A stretch of 63,125 bases of DNA, filler included, from Stramenopiles sp. TOSAG23-6 (taxonomy: Eukaryota): assembly GCA_900128565.1 (NCBI GenBank). It is 26 parts of 26 records of this genome, joined end to end, with 100 filler letters (N's around TTAATTAATTAA, not from the genome) between each part and the next. Parts side by side here need not be neighbours in the genome. Positions count along the whole stretch, not along the records: positions 58,387 to 60,707 come from LT638131.1; 25 more parts are not named here. One strand, written 5' to 3'. The position numbers and the translations under genes were made by a program. Shown here in pieces: positions 48,600 to 63,125 of this stretch; within the stretch, counting starts at the first letter, position 1, and each line of letters begins with the position of its first letter. The notes below the pieces were generated by a model that did no database searches, had not been told where the DNA came from, and saw only the letters and a program-made list of their open reading frames with translations.

Positions 48600-48796
48600 N
48601 NNNNNNNNNNNNNNNNNNNNNNNNNNNNNNNNNNNNNNNNNNNTTAATTAATTAANNNNNNNNNNNNNNNNNNNNNNNNNNNNNNNNNNNNNNNNNNNNA
48701 CTCATGCGCGATATTCTCAGATATAAAAAATATCATTACAATAGTGAAAAGAATTCAAGCAATTGTTGTAGAAACACCACACAAACAACTTATTAA

Positions 48797-51021
48797 ATGT
48801 CTTTGCGTCGACTTGTCGAAACAACTCCATATTTTTACACTCTTGATGCAGCGTGGCAAGCAATAAGTACTGGAAAGTCGGCAAATATCTCTTCTTTTAT
48901 TTCGTCTGTTGTTTCAATATCTCCAAATGATCGAATTAATATGTGGCTCAATAAAAGTGGTGCGTATGATCTCGCCGCTGCGTCAAATGCTTCAGAGTCT
49001 CTATCGACTAACTCAGATTTTAGTGATTATTACAATCATCTTCGAACTTTGAGTATCAAACAGCTACCTCTGCAACACAGCAAACGTACACAGTTACACA
49101 AAACACAAAGCGAACATAACCCTACTAATGATGAAATTTCCACAGAGTCAAAAACAGACACTACCCCTAACCCTAATCCCCGAAAATTAGTANGAGAACA
49201 AATTGAACGAGATATCAGAAGAAGTGGTGTTACTGGAGGTCTTGTTGAAGTTCTCCGTCGTGTATTATTCGCCTACGTAGAACGTAATCAAGAAGTTGGT
49301 TATAGTCAAGGNATGAACTTTCTTGCTGCACAATGTCTTCATATAAAAATGTCAGAAGANCAAACATTTTGGGTTCTCTCTGGTTTGATGTACGTTTTCA
49401 TAACCCTAACCCTAATTTCCCTAATTTCATTTTTTTTTTTTTATAGTACATGTTGTACCTAACAATTTTTTGTAACAAAAGAAAAATTCACAATACATTG
49501 AAAAAATCCTAGGAATTGATTTTTTTGATAAGGATTTGACTGGTGTATTGGTAGACTGCGCAGCGTGCACACANATATTACATACTAAATATGANTGTTT
49601 ACTGTCAAAATTTGAGACGTCNCACATNCCNTTATCTGGGATTTTAAGTAATATGTTAATGTCTTGTCTGACAAATGTTGTACGTTTTAGTTTTTTTCAA
49701 TTTTTATCTAAATTTNTTTTTCGTACGAAATTTCGTACCTAACAAAAAAAATTAAAAAAAGAAAATATGTTTTCACAATATATGTTCCGACTGAATTATC
49801 AATTATATTTTGGGATTTTTGTTTTATTATTGATTTCAGAATTTTTTCTTTTTCAGTTGTGGTTACATTTTTTGATGCAATTTCTGGTATTATATATTCA
49901 CCTCTACGTTCATCTGATATACGTGACAAATTTTTAAGTGATGACAATTCAAAACATTCAAATTCAAAACATTCAAAACATTCAAATTCAAAACATTCAA
50001 AACATTCAAAACAGTCAAAACATTCAAAAACAATTGAAAATAACATTGTGGATGATGATTTTGTACTTGTAGCTGAAAAACCCATAGANGATGATCATGT
50101 ACTATCAACATCACCTGATATTATATTGTTTGAAATATTGAAAAAATGGCGTAATGTAAAAGTAAAAATTCACAAGTTGAACAACCCTAACCCTAATGAG
50201 AGTGAACACGTCCGACTTGATGAAATGAGCCATTCAATTATTCTTGAGTCTCTTCATCATATTCTCTCATATAAAGATGACAAAGGAAAATTAATGTTAT
50301 CTACTCATAGTATTCATCAATGTAGAGAAAAAGCTTTCATTGAAGTCAATTTATCAAAGAAAGTACACGAAATCAGTCAAAATAATTTTCAACTCTCTCA
50401 NTTAGGCTATTTGGAATCTATTCGCACAACNTTACTATCTGCTCGACGTGGTATCACTTCACCAATATTGTTTACAGCATCTTCATTTTATTTACAACAT
50501 CATTGTAATGTCATTGAAAGGATTAATAAGTTGTTACTATTAATTAAAGAGTTGCATCCTTTTATGAATCAACATGATACAAACACAAACAGGTTAGGTT
50601 TTTTTTGTATGTCCAATGTTGTAAATGATGTAAATGATGATGTAAATAATTCTACTGGTAGAAAAACAAAGTATGAGAATACATATAATACACCAATATG
50701 GAGTGGTGGCTGGAGTTGTTGTGAAGAAGAAAAGTTATTAAAAAATATTGCTTCAACAATATTTTCAGTGTCAACTATTTCATTTCACTCGGAACCATCA
50801 GAAATTCAAAATGTGGATCATCAAAAAAAAAATTCTGAAAATTTTAAATTATTGGAAGACATGAAAAAAGAATTGTTACAGATATCACAATTGATTGAAA
50901 AAGTCATAACAGCTGCACCAGTGTATAGATTATTAACAACTATTGAAGAAAAATTTACCAACACATCTGTAAACCCNAACCCTATAAAAACTAGTCGAAC
51001 TGTAAACCCTAACCCTATAAA
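48797..51021 (+). CDS. TBC-domain Rab-GAP (exons to 49389, 49499-49679, 49784 onward; partial)
   Basis: QIERDIRRS, LRRVLFAY..RNQEVGYSQGMNFLAA, TFWVL and PTELSIIFWDF; GT-AT introns 49390-49498 and 49680-49783. Confidence 0.88.
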
Positions 51022-51121
51022 NNNNNNNNNNNNNNNNNNNNNNNNNNNNNNNNNNNNNNNNNNNNTTAATTAATTAANNNNNNNNNNNNNNNNNNNNNNN
51101 NNNNNNNNNNNNNNNNNNNNN

Positions 51122-54100
51122 ACTCATGCGCGATATTCTCAGATATAAAAAATATCATTACAATAGTGAAAAGAATTCAAGCAATTGTTGTAGAAACACC
51201 ACACAAACAACTTATTAAATGTCTTTGCGTCGACTTGTCGAAACAACTCCATATTTTTACACTCTTGATGCAGCGTGGCAAGCAATAAGTACTGGAAAGT
51301 CGGCAAATATCTCTTCTTTTATTTCGTCTGTTGTTTCAATATCTCCAAATGATCGAATTAATATGTGGCTCAATAAAAGTGGTGCGTATGATCTCGCCGC
51401 TGCGTCAAATGCTTCAGAGTCTCTATCGACTAACTCAGATTTTAGTGATTATTACAATCATCTTCGAACTTTGAGTATCAAACAGCTACCTCTGCAACAC
51501 AGCAAACGTACACAGTTACACAAAACACAAAGCGAACATAACCCTACTAATGATGAAATTTCCACAGAGTCAAAAACAGACACTACCCCTAACCCTAATC
51601 CCCGAAAATTAGTANGAGAACAAATTGAACGAGATATCAGAAGAAGTGGTGTTACTGGAGGTCTTGTTGAAGTTCTCCGTCGTGTATTATTCGCCTACGT
51701 AGAACGTAATCAAGAAGTTGGTTATAGTCAAGGNATGAACTTTCTTGCTGCACAATGTCTTCATATAAAAATGTCAGAAGANCAAACATTTTGGGTTCTC
51801 TCTGGTTTGATGTACGTTTTCATAACCCTAACCCTAATTTCCCTAATTTCATTTTTTTTTTTTTATAGTACATGTTGTACCTAACAATTTTTTGTAACAA
51901 AAGAAAAATTCACAATACATTGAAAAAATCCTAGGAATTGATTTTTTTGATAAGGATTTGACTGGTGTATTGGTAGACTGCGCAGCGTGCACACANATAT
52001 TACATACTAAATATGANTGTTTACTGTCAAAATTTGAGACGTCNCACATNCCNTTATCTGGGATTTTAAGTAATATGTTAATGTCTTGTCTGACAAATGT
52101 TGTACGTTTTAGTTTTTTTCAATTTTTATCTAAATTTNTTTTTCGTACGAAATTTCGTACCTAACAAAAAAAATTAAAAAAAGAAAATATGTTTTCACAA
52201 TATATGTTCCGACTGAATTATCAATTATATTTTGGGATTTTTGTTTTATTATTGATTTCAGAATTTTTTCTTTTTCAGTTGTGGTTACATTTTTTGATGC
52301 AATTTCTGGTATTATATATTCACCTCTACGTTCATCTGATATACGTGACAAATTTTTAAGTGATGACAATTCAAAACATTCAAATTCAAAACATTCAAAA
52401 CATTCAAATTCAAAACATTCAAAACATTCAAAACAGTCAAAACATTCAAAAACAATTGAAAATAACATTGTGGATGATGATTTTGTACTTGTAGCTGAAA
52501 AACCCATAGANGATGATCATGTACTATCAACATCACCTGATATTATATTGTTTGAAATATTGAAAAAATGGCGTAATGTAAAAGTAAAAATTCACAAGTT
52601 GAACAACCCTAACCCTAATGAGAGTGAACACGTCCGACTTGATGAAATGAGCCATTCAATTATTCTTGAGTCTCTTCATCATATTCTCTCATATAAAGAT
52701 GACAAAGGAAAATTAATGTTATCTACTCATAGTATTCATCAATGTAGAGAAAAAGCTTTCATTGAAGTCAATTTATCAAAGAAAGTACACGAAATCAGTC
52801 AAAATAATTTTCAACTCTCTCANTTAGGCTATTTGGAATCTATTCGCACAACNTTACTATCTGCTCGACGTGGTATCACTTCACCAATATTGTTTACAGC
52901 ATCTTCATTTTATTTACAACATCATTGTAATGTCATTGAAAGGATTAATAAGTTGTTACTATTAATTAAAGAGTTGCATCCTTTTATGAATCAACATGAT
53001 ACAAACACAAACAGGTTAGGTTTTTTTTGTATGTCCAATGTTGTAAATGATGTAAATGATGATGTAAATAATTCTACTGGTAGAAAAACAAAGTATGAGA
53101 ATACATATAATACACCAATATGGAGTGGTGGCTGGAGTTGTTGTGAAGAAGAAAAGTTATTAAAAAATATTGCTTCAACAATATTTTCAGTGTCAACTAT
53201 TTCATTTCACTCGGAACCATCAGAAATTCAAAATGTGGATCATCAAAAAAAAAATTCTGAAAATTTTAAATTATTGGAAGACATGAAAAAAGAATTGTTA
53301 CAGATATCACAATTGATTGAAAAAGTCATAACAGCTGCACCAGTGTATAGATTATTAACAACTATTGAAGAAAAATTTACCAACACATCTGTAAACCCNA
53401 ACCCTATAAAAACTAGTCGAACTGTAAACCCTAACCCTATAAANNNNNNNNNNNNNNNNNNNNNNNNNNNNNNNNNNNNNNNNNNNNTTAATTAATTAAN
53501 NNNNNNNNNNNNNNNNNNNNNNNNNNNNNNNNNNNNNNNNNNNACTCATGCGCGATATTCTCAGATATAAAAAATATCATTACAATAGTGAAAAGAATTC
53601 AAGCAATTGTTGTAGAAACACCACACAAACAACTTATTAAATGTCTTTGCGTCGACTTGTCGAAACAACTCCATATTTTTACACTCTTGATGCAGCGTGG
53701 CAAGCAATAAGTACTGGAAAGTCGGCAAATATCTCTTCTTTTATTTCGTCTGTTGTTTCAATATCTCCAAATGATCGAATTAATATGTGGCTCAATAAAA
53801 GTGGTGCGTATGATCTCGCCGCTGCGTCAAATGCTTCAGAGTCTCTATCGACTAACTCAGATTTTAGTGATTATTACAATCATCTTCGAACTTTGAGTAT
53901 CAAACAGCTACCTCTGCAACACAGCAAACGTACACAGTTACACAAAACACAAAGCGAACATAACCCTACTAATGATGAAATTTCCACAGAGTCAAAAACA
54001 GACACTACCCCTAACCCTAATCCCCGAAAATTAGTANGAGAACAAATTGAACGAGATATCAGAAGAAGTGGTGTTACTGGAGGTCTTGTTGAAGTTCTCC

Positions 54101-55865
54101 GTCGTGTATTATTCGCCTACGTAGAACGTAATCAAGAAGTTGGTTATAGTCAAGGNATGAACTTTCTTGCTGCACAATGTCTTCATATAAAAATGTCAGA
54201 AGANCAAACATTTTGGGTTCTCTCTGGTTTGATGTACGTTTTCATAACCCTAACCCTAATTTCCCTAATTTCATTTTTTTTTTTTTATAGTACATGTTGT
54301 ACCTAACAATTTTTTGTAACAAAAGAAAAATTCACAATACATTGAAAAAATCCTAGGAATTGATTTTTTTGATAAGGATTTGACTGGTGTATTGGTAGAC
54401 TGCGCAGCGTGCACACANATATTACATACTAAATATGANTGTTTACTGTCAAAATTTGAGACGTCNCACATNCCNTTATCTGGGATTTTAAGTAATATGT
54501 TAATGTCTTGTCTGACAAATGTTGTACGTTTTAGTTTTTTTCAATTTTTATCTAAATTTNTTTTTCGTACGAAATTTCGTACCTAACAAAAAAAATTAAA
54601 AAAAGAAAATATGTTTTCACAATATATGTTCCGACTGAATTATCAATTATATTTTGGGATTTTTGTTTTATTATTGATTTCAGAATTTTTTCTTTTTCAG
54701 TTGTGGTTACATTTTTTGATGCAATTTCTGGTATTATATATTCACCTCTACGTTCATCTGATATACGTGACAAATTTTTAAGTGATGACAATTCAAAACA
54801 TTCAAATTCAAAACATTCAAAACATTCAAATTCAAAACATTCAAAACATTCAAAACAGTCAAAACATTCAAAAACAATTGAAAATAACATTGTGGATGAT
54901 GATTTTGTACTTGTAGCTGAAAAACCCATAGANGATGATCATGTACTATCAACATCACCTGATATTATATTGTTTGAAATATTGAAAAAATGGCGTAATG
55001 TAAAAGTAAAAATTCACAAGTTGAACAACCCTAACCCTAATGAGAGTGAACACGTCCGACTTGATGAAATGAGCCATTCAATTATTCTTGAGTCTCTTCA
55101 TCATATTCTCTCATATAAAGATGACAAAGGAAAATTAATGTTATCTACTCATAGTATTCATCAATGTAGAGAAAAAGCTTTCATTGAAGTCAATTTATCA
55201 AAGAAAGTACACGAAATCAGTCAAAATAATTTTCAACTCTCTCANTTAGGCTATTTGGAATCTATTCGCACAACNTTACTATCTGCTCGACGTGGTATCA
55301 CTTCACCAATATTGTTTACAGCATCTTCATTTTATTTACAACATCATTGTAATGTCATTGAAAGGATTAATAAGTTGTTACTATTAATTAAAGAGTTGCA
55401 TCCTTTTATGAATCAACATGATACAAACACAAACAGGTTAGGTTTTTTTTGTATGTCCAATGTTGTAAATGATGTAAATGATGATGTAAATAATTCTACT
55501 GGTAGAAAAACAAAGTATGAGAATACATATAATACACCAATATGGAGTGGTGGCTGGAGTTGTTGTGAAGAAGAAAAGTTATTAAAAAATATTGCTTCAA
55601 CAATATTTTCAGTGTCAACTATTTCATTTCACTCGGAACCATCAGAAATTCAAAATGTGGATCATCAAAAAAAAAATTCTGAAAATTTTAAATTATTGGA
55701 AGACATGAAAAAAGAATTGTTACAGATATCACAATTGATTGAAAAAGTCATAACAGCTGCACCAGTGTATAGATTATTAACAACTATTGAAGAAAAATTT
55801 ACCAACACATCTGTAAACCCNAACCCTATAAAAACTAGTCGAACTGTAAACCCTAACCCTATAAA
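51122..55865 (+). repeat. Two redundant copies of the TBC contig (51122-53443, 53544-55865)
   Basis: Same length, sequence and n positions as 48700-51021. Confidence 0.95.
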
Positions 55866-58286: not shown

Positions 58287-58456
58287 NNNNNNNNNNNNNN
58301 NNNNNNNNNNNNNNNNNNNNNNNNNNNNNNTTAATTAATTAANNNNNNNNNNNNNNNNNNNNNNNNNNNNNNNNNNNNNNNNNNNNTTTTTCGTACGAAA
58401 TTTTGTACCTAACAATTTTTTTTAGATTTTTTTTGAAATATGTTTCCAAAATACAT

Positions 58457-58550
58457 AGGTTTAGATCCTTATTCTCAATTAAATGTACCAAAAAATGCAA
58501 CTCTAGCCCAGATAAAAAAAGCATTTCGTACTGAAGCATTACGCTGGCAT
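58457..58550 (+). CDS. DnaJ (J-domain) exon
   Basis: DPYSQLNVPKNATLAQIKKAFRTEALRWH, cut by a family donor just before the expected PD of HPD. Confidence 0.8.
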
Positions 58551-58568
58551 GTATGTTGTTTCAAATTT

Positions 58569-58606
<38 letters not shown>

Positions 58607-58734
58607 ATTTTTTTCCCAAAAAAAAAATAATTTTTTTTTTTTTTTTTTTTTTTTTGGTTTTCATACGAAATTTTGTACCTAAACAAAAATTAATTTTTTT
58701 TCGTTTTTTTTTTGAAATATTGTACAAAATAAAT

Positions 58735-60707
58735 GGATGGTGCAGGTCCAGAGGAATTTGAGTATACATTTAATAAAAAAGATGTAATGCGTAATGGTGG
58801 TGGGTGGTCACTTGGATGGAAAAGAGGTGAAAAAAGTGGAGTAGTCCATCGAGTTCGTGTCAATGTGAATCGTACATTTTCATTATGAATTTTTTTTCGA
58901 AAAAAAAAAAAAAAATATTTCATACGAAATTTTGTACCTAACCAAAANTTTTTTTTTTTTTTTTNAATATTTTCAAAATAGTACATGACATTTGACAACA
59001 TTATTTCCTGAAATAAAAAGTCTTGGATGCAAACGACCACATTTTTGTGTTGCNCCAAAGGTAGTACCNAAGCCACAAGCTATGATTGGTGCACAACACG
59101 TGGCAAGTGCCGATATATATCGCGACTATAACCCCAACCCTAATAATCTANAAAAACAAAAAAATTTAAAAAATTTAAAAAATCTAAAAAATAGTTTGGA
59201 AAAATCTTCAAATGCGAATGAGTCTGAGACACAATTAAAATCAAAATCCGTAATAACAACAATTCGTTTTTTTAGACCAAAAATATCATTCACAAATGAA
59301 GATCAAGGCAATGAACAACGACCTAAAAAAGCGGTACCTGGTTCATTTCCTTTTAATCAAAAACCAACTGTACATTTTATTTAAATTTTTTTTTTTTTTT
59401 TTTGAAATATTTTTTTTGTAGTAAATTTCGTACCTAACACAATTTTTTTTTTTTTTTTAAATATTTTTTTACAATAAATCATCCGGAACCAACAATAATT
59501 TTCGTCATTGAAGGCAAAATTGATAAAGATGAACGAAAATGCCGTGCATCAACAACACAAATACCAGCACCAGCATCATATGGGAATATAAAACTTATCT
59601 TAAGCCCAGGTGTTTGGTATGAAGATTTATACATTGTTACATGTATGTTTTTTATTTTTTTTTTTAAATTTTTTTTTTCAATTTTAATTATTTTTTCATA
59701 CGAAATTTTGTACCTAAACAAAAAATATTTTTTTTTTTTTTTTTTTTGAAACTAAAAAAAAAAATTTTAAAATTTTTTTCCAAAATACATGTTCAACACC
59801 TAATGCCATTGATTGTCGTGATTTTCAAGATTTGGAATGTTCCGAACCTTCTGAAGTGAATCGTTTTATGACAAAAATGCCAGATATAAATGGTATACCT
59901 GAAGATGGAACAATTGATGGTGGTGGTTGGGCATTAGTACGAAGATTACCTCGGCCTGATAATTTTTGGGATTATTATGAAGATGAAAAAAATGAAAAAA
60001 ATAAAAAAAATGAAAAAAATGAAAAATATAATACAGAAGATACAAATAGACAATTTCGTAGTATAACACTGAATGAACCTATACCTAAATCATTTTATAT
60101 TGAATTAAACAATAATGGTTTATGGGAAATTGCTATCAATGACACAATTCATGATACCCCTAACCCTAACCAAAATAACCAAAATAACCAAAATAACCCT
60201 AGCCAATTAAAAAAGGGATTTATTATTGTTTTAATTGATGGTGCGCCAAGGCCAACAACACTTTATACGGCTACTCAAATTACAAAATTATTGCATAATG
60301 GTCCATTTCCAATACAACTTGGAGTAGGTTTTATTTTATATTGATAATTGTATACCAAATGATTTTTTTTTTTTTNCAAATATTTTTTTTCAAATTTTTT
60401 TTCGTACGAAATTTCGTACCTAACAAAAAAAATTGTCCAAATAAATATTTTTTTACAAAATTTGTAAGTCGACCTCTATTATACTGGCATCGTTCAAATG
60501 ATCAATTAAGAGGTGAATCATTTTATCATGATTGTATGCTACTTCCTACGTCTACAAATAACCCTAACCCTAACCCAAATGAAGAACACGAAAAAAATAA
60601 AAAAAATAAAAGAAATAAAAAAAATAAAAAAAACACAAAATCGGAAAAAAATAATAAAAATAAAATACAAAATGAAATGTGTAAAAAAACATTTGAACTT
60701 GACCAAT
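58735..60707 (+). CDS. Hypothetical multi-exon protein, possibly with a PDZ-like segment (introns 58872-58986, 59370-59479, 59643-59790, 60324 to about 60460)
   Basis: One continuous frame results when the four family introns are removed at consensus boundaries. Confidence 0.6.
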
Positions 60708-60895
60708 NNNNNNNNNNNNNNNNNNNNNNNNNNNNNNNNNNNNNNNNNNNNTTAATTAATTAANNNNNNNNNNNNNNNNNNNNNNNNNNNNNNNNNNNNN
60801 NNNNNNNTTTGGAAAAATATTTCAAAAAAAAATTCGTTAGGTACAACATTTCGTACGNAAAATAAATTCGAAATTTAAAAAAAAATAAAACGTAC

Positions 60896-61464
60896 ATGGT
60901 ATATGGGCTATTAAGCTCAGGGAGCCAAACTCGTTCACTTTGTTTCATTGCAGCAACAAGTAAGCGCTTTGATCGATCTATATTAAACACTTTTTTAGTA
61001 TTTACTTTACCACCGCTACTTGAATGAACAGAAGATATTGGAAAAATATGTCGAACTCCAACTTCAGTGCCTTTCTCAAGAAACCATTCCCATCGAGAAG
61101 CTTTCCGAAGAAGAGACATTCCAACGATAAGCTCGTTCACTGAAGCATTTGTACTCTCCGAAATTGATATAATACTCCCACCAATAGAATTATTCTTAAC
61201 CGTGTCTAATTTAACTTGATAGCGACTTCCACAACCATCAACTACTTTAATAACATCACCTTGACGACACCTCAGAACCTTGTGAGCATGACGCGTTTCT
61301 TCGAGAGAAAGGTACAAACTATCTCCAACCTTACTACTTTTTGGGGAGACTTTAGAGCAAAAGAAAGGTGTTGTAGTTGGGCCTGTTCGACTGCTGAAAC
61401 AATAAACAAGTCTCTGTCGTTTAACCAAGAAGTTAGACGATCTAAAAGACCGGAGCAAATTCAT
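60896..61464 (-). CDS. rsmE: RsmE-family 16S rRNA m3U methyltransferase, probably organelle-targeted (first exon)
   Basis: HAHKVLRCRQGDVIKVVDG, WEWFLEKGTEVGV and AAMKQSERVWLPEL; presequence-like N-terminus. Confidence 0.88.
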
Positions 61465-61725
61465 TAGAAAATATGCATCAAAGTTTAGTAGCTATACTTC
61501 TGCAAATTAAAAAAAATGTTTGATTCCTAAAAAAAAATATTACGGAAATGCGCGCTGGATGAATGAATTGGATTTCGTGTGATTTAGATGATGGTGATGG
61601 CCGGATGGTAGTCAGTTCGAATCGCTTACTTACACAAGTATAAAATTCGAAGTTTTTCTGAACGAGAACTGGCATTCACACAGTTGTACTACTAAATTTT
61701 CTAGTACCCAGCAATAGATTATAGC

Positions 61726-63028
61726 ATGTCTTCATCTACACAGGTAACTAAACGAGCCCGTATTGACCCTATCGACACTAGTAGCGTTATTGTTATTCCT
61801 TTAATCGCGGCAAAAGCATTGAAGCGTGTTGTAGAAAGTGCAGGCTATTTTGATAAATCTCGAAAAGCCGCGATGCTCCCAGAAAATCAGGCAAGTGCTT
61901 TATATTCTGGTATGGATGTTTGTACAAGTGGTCACCAAAGGGTGAAGTTTTTATGTATACCCATAATATCCCCCAAACTTGTCTCTAGTTTGCTTTCTAC
62001 ATGGATGAAAATCGTTCAAACGAATGAAATGAACCTGGAGGTTGATACACTTCACAACACAATTGAAGAAGAAGTTAGACACCACATAAAAAAAGAGCAA
62101 CGTAAAAAGCCCCAAGGTTCAATTATCGACCCATTGACTGGTGAAAAATACAGAAAGAAAATAATTTCATCATTTTTATTGGCAAAGGTACTACATTTTC
62201 AACTACCAGTAAATAAGAGGTTTGAAGTTTCACAGAAACAAATACTTAAAAACAGGGTTAAATCTCCAGCAGCAGTTGAAAATTCTCAATTAAATACAAA
62301 TCTCCAAAAATTAAGTCCTCTAGAATTATCTGAAAAATATGCTGCTTCTCGTCCTCGACCACCTACATATTTAGATTTAAAACTTTCAGTTCCTTCTTGT
62401 GCTTACTCATATTTATCAAAATGTTATGGCATTGAAAGACTAGAAAATATTTTATGCGCTTTGACTGAACCACCAAGACGAACAACGTTAAGAGTGAATA
62501 CGTTAAAATATACTCGTAATGAGGTACTTTGTCTATTAGAACCAATCCTTGCCCAATTAAATATCGAATTGAAAAAAGATAATCGAACACCTCTGAAAGC
62601 AATTCCACATCCTATAATTAACGATTGTATAGTAATCCCATCTTCTCCAGTACTTCAAGTCGAACCATTTTGGGATGCACGAAAAGAAATTATTGTGGAT
62701 CGTCTTTGTGGTGAAGCAGTTTTGCGTGGTGCAAATATATTTGTAAAAGGTATTCGTGGTGCAAGTCTAGGTATTAAACAAGGCGATAAAGTATGTACGT
62801 TTTCATTATGAATTTCGAATTTATTTTTTTTTCGTACGAAATTTTTTACCTAACAAATTTCGAATTTAATTTTTTTTACGATATATGTGTAACTGTGGAT
62901 CTTCAACCAAGTTTAAAGGGTAAGTCTGAAAGCATTGGACGTCCTACAGTTGGTAGTAATAGCAACTTATTCATAGGTAAAAAAGTGTATATTGGTTCAG
63001 GTATTGCCATGCTATCTAGAAAAGATAT
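61726..63028 (+). CDS. NSUN6: NSUN6-like RNA m5C methyltransferase with PUA domain (exons 61726-62794, 62887-63028; 3' partial)
   Basis: PPRRTTLRVNT, EIIVDRLCGEAVLRGANIFVKGI, GDKVCVTVDL and KVYIGSGIAMLSRKD. Confidence 0.88.
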
Positions 63029-63125
63029 GTATTTTTTATTTTTTTTAATTTCGAATTTATGTTTTTTTGCGTACGAAATTTTGTACCTAACGAATTTTTT
63101 TTTGAAATATTTTTCCAAAATACAT
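63029..63125 (+). mobile_element. Introner-like GT-AT intron (97 nt) with a perfect 9-bp terminal inverted repeat including the flanking AT
   Basis: AT|GTATTTT ... GTACGAAATTTTGTACCTAAC ... AAAATACAT; the downstream exon lies outside the window. Confidence 0.8.

Follow-up and report, generated by a model that had tools for sequence, protein, structure and literature searches.

A probable GT-AT intron that passes over a nearby AG, and the repeated intron family around it, in Stramenopiles sp. TOSAG23-6

Introduction

Nearly all known introns end in AG, and this dinucleotide is among the most constant signals of eukaryotic genes. Which 3' end is cut, then, in an intron where the reading frame continues only beyond an AG, after an AT? 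The question is raised by a plus-strand intron at 58872-58986 in a stretch of 63,125 nucleotides from the genome assembly of Stramenopiles sp. TOSAG23-6 (GCA_900128565.1), which we call the window. The intron is 115 nt long, has the termini GT...AT and, according to the family alignment, is a member of a repeated family; an AG at 58980-58981 (+) lies 5 nt before its proposed 3' end. We consider it likely that this intron is real and that it runs from GT to AT, the support at the junction coming from the reading frame, codon usage and the position of the cut within the family pattern. The copy is among the few that lack the AT/GT...AT/ repeat usual in the family (a slash marks a cut here and below) and carry an AG near the end, and it could thereby separate three readings: that the AT is used, that an AT-AC intron has been misread, and that the AG is used.

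Results

Reading frame across the junction

The upstream exon ends ...GTGAATC and is followed by GTACATTTTCATTATGAA, the intron beginning GTACAT. At its other end the intron closes ...AATATTTTCAAAATAGTACAT (final AGTACAT), after which the exon reads GACATTTGACAAC; both A58980 and G58981 are present. Joining 58871 to 58987 gives ...VNVNRHLTTLFPEIK, with 176 codons open counted from 58739. With the same donor and the AG acceptor (exon from 58982), translation yields ...VNVNLHDI and a stop within 3-4 codons, and moving both cuts one base to the left gives ...VNVN and an immediate TGA. Both stops had been predicted in a preliminary description of the locus and were reproduced by our joining script. 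In the downstream frame, a TGA at 58986-58988 (+), made up of the last intron base and the first two exon bases, renders every acceptor at or before 58986 unproductive, whatever the donor, and places the earliest productive acceptor at 58987. The view that the upstream AG is not a productive acceptor is thereby supported, and it has a precedent in the kinesin intron 10894-10987 described below. The further claim that only GT...CAT keeps the frame open stands as far as GT donors are concerned, among which this is the sole open join; it does not stand for the cut itself, since TA...TG (58872/58988), with each cut one base further right, gives an identical mRNA, a shift range of 0..+1.

Codon usage on both sides agrees with this frame. 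Log-odds scores were trained on the Pfam-supported exons of the window, with stop codons excluded. The upstream exon, exon b (58735-58871, +; ...DGAGPEEFEY...HRVRVNVN), has an uncertain 5' limit and ends in phase 1, C58871 opening the split codon. Only one of its three frames is open, and this frame scores +19.1 bits, against +1.5 and -10.7 for the others. The downstream exon, exon c (58987-59369, +; (R)HLTTLFPEIKSLGCKRPHFC...NQKPT), reaches +35.7 bits over 124 codons, and its first 29 scored codons +7.2 bits, against -5.5 and -4.4. The stop-to-stop frame downstream covers 58989-59384, or 131 codons; at the stop density of the contig (0.059) an open run of that length has a chance probability of 3e-4, and one of 46 codons a probability of 0.06. 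Taken alone, the junction would be in frame with a prior of about 1/3. Beyond exon c the frame is kept into later exons across two more introns of the family, both GT-AT (59370-59479 and 59643-59790). An antisense frame of 129 codons (58690-59079, -) is open across the intron as well; its exon parts score -1.0 and -8.8 bits, and it is an A/T-rich by-product and not a gene.

The host protein had been called uncharacterised, and it remains so: searches with exon c (58989-59369) returned no homologue among proteins of similar size, among longer proteins or in a set of 1.84 billion representatives. Pfam gave no family for exons b to e, and of 172 pattern matches of exon c in metagenome contigs none was confirmed. 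The protein carries the word GGGW[SA]L twice (NGGGWSL and DGGGWAL, encoded within 58736-58870 and 59790-60328) together with N/K/Q-rich low-complexity runs. When exons b and c were compared with exon e for paralogy, this word was all that they shared, and no usable alignment resulted.

Family signals within the intron

The intron carries every block of the family in the usual order and at normal family size. Its 5' splice-site block, GTACATTTTCA (58872-58882, +), corresponds to the family consensus GTAYGTTTTCA/GTATGTTTTAT, where the slash separates alternatives, and within 58740-58904 the donor matrix has its maximum at 58872, with 11.8 bits against 7.0 for the runner-up. The conserved core, TTTCATACGAAATTTTGTACCTAAC (58918-58942, +), combines a near-palindrome (family TTTCGTACGAAA) with the branch-site-like motif GTACCTAAC; the family 17-mer matches exactly at 58926-58942, and GTACCTAAC occupies 58934-58942, followed by a T run. 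The yeast branch sequence TACTAAC resembles GTACCTAAC. An A/T-rich spacer with the T run (58943-58965, +) contains two N, at 58948 and 58965, and leads to the 3' terminal block AATATTTTCAAAATAGTACAT (58966-58986, +), for which the family alignment gives the consensus AATATTTTTCCAAAATACAT. Here the copy deviates: its tail CAAAATAGTACAT is three bases longer than the consensus CAAAATACAT, and it is due to these three extra bases that there is an AG at 58980-58981.

The family itself is large. Allowing up to 3 mismatches, the 17-mer GAAATTTTGTACCTAAC has 60 matches in the window, against 0.63 expected from shuffled sequence. Copies are about 90-150 nt long and occur in nearly every gene of the window, and the aligned ones lie in GluRS, kinesin, EF-hand, PUA/NOP2-like and orphan genes. 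In an alignment of 23 complete copies the blocks follow the order GTAYGTTTT(A/C)A; a T-rich stretch, often with ATGAATTTCGAATTT; TTTCGTACGAAATTTTGTACCTAAC; a T run; and (G)AAATATTTTTC(C/A)A(A/C)AATACAT. The tail consensus, ...ATATTTTTC(C/A)A(A/C)AATACAT, ends in ACAT/. No exact match to the 24-nt family core was found in metagenome contigs.

For the termini we curated 25 introns. At the 5' end GT occurs in 23 and AT in two; at the 3' end AT occurs in 20, AC in two, AG in two and AA in one. All 25 carry A at -2, 23 carry A at -4, and C stands at -3 in 19. Measured to the 3' end, the distance of the branch-like motif has a median of 39 nt and, among clean cases, a range of 33-73 nt; apparent distances of 7 and 19 are artefacts of a second CCTAA-like match. 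With such a spread, a fixed distance from branch to end was rejected as a rule. A covariation between intron positions +4 and -6 was likewise dropped, as the matching G occurs in only two of 11 GTAC-type donors in the 23-copy alignment.

The sequence around the family junctions is also patterned. In 14 of 23 copies the two bases directly before GT are AT, whose dinucleotide frequency is 0.091 (P = 1e-9), and short direct repeats overlap many of the junctions; at 58872 the two preceding bases are TC. The inverted intron ends are short, 3-4 nt (GTAY...RTAC before the final AT). Among seven folded members no stable end pairing was found (z -1.39 to +0.85), and a 4-bp terminal helix appears in three of the seven minimum-energy folds, those of 24966-24875, 10894-10987 and 4169-4261 (the last offset by two bases).

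Several members are unusual. Two start with AT, as judged from frames only: 40807-40725 (-) is AT...AC (ATACGTTGTCA...CACAATATAC/) and 41130-40976 (-) is AT...AG (ATATGTTTTCA...CACAATACAG/). Pfam gave no family for the exons flanking either. A G-to-A change of the first base that goes together with a C as the last would suggest that the two end bases of the intron touch directly. Telomere-like AACCCTAACCCTAA repeats stand directly after the 5' block in 7553-7662 and 49390-49498. Two GTACCTAAC cores are found in 6121-5953 (-), 12929-12791 (-), 44142-43959 (-) and 1860-2090 (+); the doubled core may reflect a partial duplication inside the element or one copy nested in another. The last of these, 1860-2090, ends CACTAG/, a canonical AG. 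The intron 60331-60470 has the family core with a deviant donor, GTAGGTTTTATTTTAT, and the tail ACAAAATTTGTAAG/, for which AA, TT, TA, GT and AG ends are all conceivable.

Exact removal and register in homology-checked members

Other family members interrupt conserved proteins, and their exact absence from these proteins follows from homology and profile coordinates, which for the RNA is indirect evidence. In GluRS, the intron 4169-4261 falls between positions 1-15 and 16-180 of the tRNA-synt_1c profile and splits the HIGH motif as H/IGH. In kinesin, 9926-10033 separates Pfam Kinesin positions 47-78 from 80-101, with a split codon between them, and at 10114-10201 profile positions 101 and 102 abut, the segment 102-326 beginning after 10201. 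Six kinesins were searched against the window with tblastn. Three of them, P0003, P0004 and P0008, are interrupted at 9926-10033 by a gap of exactly 36 codons (...GFNVCI/FAYGQTGSGKT...) and give the junctions LLG/VAPR at 10114-10201 and NK/AAASVE at 10894-10987. At one and the same family position the three kinesin introns close with AT (9926-10033), AC (10114-10201) and AG (10894-10987), and 36910-36793 (-) closes with AA. Thus, the last intron base varies across the family and the A at -2 is constant.

Cutting at the family ends keeps the frame in 22 of the 23 copies curated by hand (binomial P = 5e-10 with p = 1/3). Because these ends had been chosen by eye, the test was repeated blind to the frame, with donor and acceptor matrices built from five homology-checked introns and applied to 48 candidate pairs. 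At least 8 bits on both matrices were reached by 23 pairs, and removal of four rows from two redundant identical contigs and of the five training introns left 14. Twelve of these were in frame at offset 0 (P = 1.5e-5), compared with 6, 3, 5 and 2 when the acceptor was offset by -2, -1, +1 and +2. The two misses were a donor touching a contig end and a copy before an 8-codon last exon. The copy at 58872-58986 scores below the 8-bit acceptor threshold and is outside the 14.

The register, that is, which bases are the first and the last of the intron, can be narrowed by asking how far both cuts may be shifted without changing the product. The permitted range is -5..0 for GluRS 4169-4261, -2..0 for kinesin 9926-10033, 0..+2 for kinesin 10114-10201 and 0..+1 for 58872-58986, and there is no freedom at all in 10894-10987 (GT-AG) and in the minus-strand introns 36910-36793 (GT-AA) and 12929-12791 (GT-AT). 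Only shift 0 is common to all junctions, and the 5' end would therefore be GT if one rule holds for the whole family. The GT-AT reading of the family is well supported by protein homology. At 58872-58986 the GT...AT register put forward in the preliminary description agrees with the frame logic, codon usage, the best donor at 58872 and the family end ACAT/. The same description had taken this junction as the best single one for fixing the register, which we cannot uphold: it has an ambiguity of +1, no homologue and no RNA cover, and 12929-12791 (-), also GT-AT, has zero ambiguity. The register is better fixed by the profile-checked introns 4169-4261 in GluRS and 9926-10033 and 10114-10201 in kinesin, whose ranges overlap only at 0.

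Skipped AG dinucleotides

Skipping of AG is not peculiar to 58872-58986. At least one AG lies between the branch-like motif and the end in nine of 25 introns, and in that interval AG is mildly rarer than by chance, with 10 observed against 16 from shuffles. In the kinesin intron 10894-10987, with the tail TTTTACAGTACAG/, protein alignment shows that a CAG 5 nt and an AAG 22 nt before the end are both skipped. The nearer AG stands in the context AGTACA, as in the tail at 58980, and the final dinucleotide of this kinesin intron is itself AG. In 9926-10033 an AG is skipped 35 nt before the end. These two homology-checked introns rule out a rule of "first AG" or of "first CAT after the branch". 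By the same alignments, skipping of an AG five bases upstream of the cut can be taken as demonstrated behaviour of the family.

Contigs and relatives

The window is a chain of short contigs with 25 linkers between them (N-run, TTAATTAATTAA, N-run); most contigs measure 2,318-2,344 bases, and they are ordered by falling size. The intron at 58872-58986 sits in contig 58387-60707 (2.3 kb; LT638131.1). Contigs 48700-51021, 51122-53443 and 53544-55865 are identical letter for letter, N positions included, and the apparent tandem triplication at 48700-55865 is a property of the contig collection, not of the genome. The G+C content across the window is 22-36%, and an Rfam scan of the window found no RNA genes. 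The best named relatives of the window kinesin are stramenopiles, led by an Incisomonas transcript model with 61% identity and followed by Triparma, Hondaea and Cafeteria; two unnamed proteins match it at 81% and 77%.

Discussion

Evidence against a GT-AT intron at 58872-58986 and other explanations

We are fairly confident that 58872-58986 is a spliceosome-type intron in the gene of an orphan protein, one copy of the family, cut from G58872 to T58986. Several observations weigh against this. The join depends on frame, with its prior of 1/3, on codon usage and on analogy; two metatranscriptome runs (sampled-word shares of 0.13 and 0.06 for 58437-63125) gave 0 contigs over the 88 bases 58966-59053, an absence of cover that says nothing either way. 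Exon c has its first Met after 31 codons, a lead that chance alone would leave open with P = 0.15, and a separate start further into the exon may exist. The TA...TG cut gives the same product. The ungapped acceptor matrix peaks at 58983 (5.7 bits), which gives a stop, and scores 58986 poorly, the peak being 3 nt early because of the three extra bases in the tail. Two N lie within the intron (58948 and 58965), its host contig is only 2.3 kb long, and 16 of the 60 family motif matches are at most 110 nt from a contig break. With TC before its GT, the copy also lacks a target-site duplication. Finally, the neighbouring family intron 58551-58734 (+; 184 nt), which follows a DnaJ-like exon, has the family end AAT/ and T and A runs of unusual length; cut at that end, it does not bring exon b into frame, which shows a fault in the local gene model or in the assembly. 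This frame break could stem from an indel error, from two intron copies that collapsed into one during assembly, or from another acceptor (TG at 58735). The DnaJ-like exon (58458-58550; Pfam DnaJ positions 1-29 of 63) ends ...RWH/GTATGT, and no HPD motif follows it.

On these grounds it might be argued that the two exons are not joined as assumed, either because the contig is a chimera of two collapsed intron copies or because exon c belongs to a separate transcript or has its own start, the element being untranslated. The closeness of 16 of 60 matches to contig breaks (within 110 nt), the make-up of the window from contigs of about 2.3 kb, three of them identical, the two N, the frame break at 58551-58734, the 31-codon lead before the first Met (P = 0.15) and the lack of a homologue linking the exons all point that way. 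We nevertheless regard a misjoin as improbable: cutting at exactly the family ends gives an in-frame join, both flanks are coding-like up to the junction, the size and block order are normal for the family, and the frame of exon c is carried on across two more family introns. Rather less probable still is true use of the AG at 58980-58981, or of the distance-equivalent position 58983, giving a truncated message from a decaying copy or an unproductive splice form. A T-rich tract with a TAG behind it is the acceptor of the textbooks, 58983 is where the ungapped family matrix peaks, and an orphan protein with low-complexity parts would fit such a copy. Against it, the stop would come within 3-4 codons, yet 131 open, coding-like codons (P = 3e-4) follow and run in frame onward, and in the homology-checked 10894-10987 the equivalent CAG 5 nt upstream is skipped.

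A misread register, with AT-AC or U12-type introns removed by the minor spliceosome, is suggested by the 14 of 23 copies that have AT before GT and AC before the final AT, and by the two AT-starting members, 40807-40725 (AT-AC) and 41130-40976 (AT-AG). At 58872-58986 this reading is excluded because TC precedes the GT, and nine of 23 copies, this one and eight others, cannot be shifted by -2. The 5' block is GTAYGTTTT and not [GA]TATCCTT, and the branch-like motif, which a T tract accompanies, has a median distance to the end of 39 nt, compared with the distance of about 10-12 nt that the published account of Physarum gives; we hold minor-spliceosome removal to be very unlikely. Just as slight are the chances of removal outside the spliceosome, whether through pairing of the ends, as in the non-conventional introns of euglenids and the introners of Amoebophrya, or at the level of DNA. 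The ends do form short inverted repeats (GTAY...RTAC, then AT), with a 4-bp terminal helix in three of seven folds, and short direct repeats lie over many junctions. Conversely, none of the seven folds is significant (z -1.39 to +0.85), the Amoebophrya introners as described have inverted repeats of 8-20 nt (PMC7789003), and the strong 5' site, CTAAC and T tract are signals read by the spliceosome.

Placed against the usual intron classes, 58872-58986 thus has the GT with extended 5' consensus, the branch-like motif and the T tract of U2-type introns, and departs from them in its missing 3' AG. The U12-type 5' motif and a branch about 10-15 nt from the end are absent, and there is a pyrimidine tract, which U12-type introns lack. 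Many similar copies stand in unrelated genes, as in introners, and the pairing of intron ends typical of euglenids and Amoebophrya is limited to a helix of at most 4 bp among the seven members folded.

Comparison with known systems

The closest parallels are introner elements, such as the IE families of Micromonas pusilla and others, which are described as MITE-like, transposon-derived introns (PMC11282704). As in that account, many similar short introns with their own 5' site occupy unrelated genes (PMC11282704). The termini, inverted here over 3-4 nt, and a direct repeat at the junctions (here AT before GT in 14 of 23), by which removal of the element with one repeat would restore the frame, may be further points of likeness. 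The introners described there have GT/GC...AG termini, the AG often coming from the target-site duplication, whereas here AT closes 20 of 25 introns, with AC, AG and AA as variants. Unlike introners, moreover, the copy at 58872-58986 lacks a direct repeat.

In the tunicate Fritillaria borealis about 95% of introns are reported to be non-GT/AG, most often AG-AC and AG-AT; their 3' site comes from a repeated exonic TAC, and the odd 3' ends are read by divergent U2AF paralogues that arose by duplication (PMC13326754, PMC11282704). According to these accounts the GT-AG rule was replaced genome-wide, with a likely MITE origin and an adapted major spliceosome, and the likeness extends to a non-AG 3' end tied to a repeated trinucleotide, TAC there and (AC)AT here. 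The introns described for Fritillaria start mostly with AG and are diverse, in contrast to the canonical GTAYGT here and to a set that is nearly all one family with a CTAAC core; the closest named relatives of the kinesin here are, besides, stramenopiles. For the marine protist Amoebophrya, more than 60% non-canonical introns, repeated families and direct repeats of 3-5 nt over the junctions are described, and standard gene finders fail (PMC7789003). Repeated families with direct repeats at the junctions are common to both, but the Amoebophrya introns as presented have no preferred termini and form hairpins from inverted repeats of 8-20 nt, whereas here GT...AT is uniform and no significant hairpin was found. 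The rare GT-AT introns of U12 type known from Physarum and animals share the terminal dinucleotides and, as far as they have been described, the tolerance of several last bases; they differ in 5' motif, branch-to-end distance and T tract, and GT-AT is a small minority there and the main class here. The combination of a canonical, conserved 5' site and a branch-like motif with AT as the main 3' end sets the family apart from introners, Fritillaria, Amoebophrya and minor introns. In a literature search that had subscription-only papers and supplements outside its scope, neither GT-AT as a main intron class nor the family itself was found.

A possible mechanism and its meaning

We infer that the copy at 58872-58986 is removed by the spliceosome, from G58872 to T58986. 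The major spliceosome would read the strong GTAYGT donor, the putative branch motif with CTAAC and the T tract, and the 3' cut would be placed by the terminal block ...AATACAT/, with the A at -2 required and the last base relaxed and mostly T. There would be no search for the first AG, and the AG at 58980-58981 would thus be passed over. During the second step, non-Watson-Crick contacts hold the 3' AG in place: the G touches the G that opens the intron, and the A touches the branch adenosine. A loosening of the former contact would be in keeping with an A that never varies beside a last base that is free.

The family may have spread as a transposon-like introner, in which case the element together with one copy of an AT target duplication (up to TACAT) would be spliced out. 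This introner-like spread is suggested by the excess of AT before GT, by the inverted ends GTAY...RTAC and by near-identical copies in unrelated genes. As regards the first of these, an exonic preference at the splice site would look the same as a target duplication.

Taken further, and with odds that we put only slightly above even, the main spliceosome of this organism has replaced the AG rule: most introns would belong to one self-propagated family cut at ...ACAT/, with the A at -2 read, the last base nearly free (T far ahead of C, G and A) and AGs ignored even 5 nt away, making this the first lineage in which GT-AT dominates. Lineages that have abandoned AG, such as Fritillaria, Amoebophrya and euglenids, are the main natural experiments on how the second cut is chosen. 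A textbook 5' site and a branch-like motif, together with an AT end and skipped AGs, would separate the evolution of the 5' site from that of the 3' site. They would point to changed readers of the 3' site, either U2AF-like factors or the second-step contacts of the first and last intron bases. The same change would account for the way in which standard gene finders split almost all genes in organisms of this kind. If it is true, the family offers a natural system for asking what role the 3'-terminal G plays in the second step of splicing.

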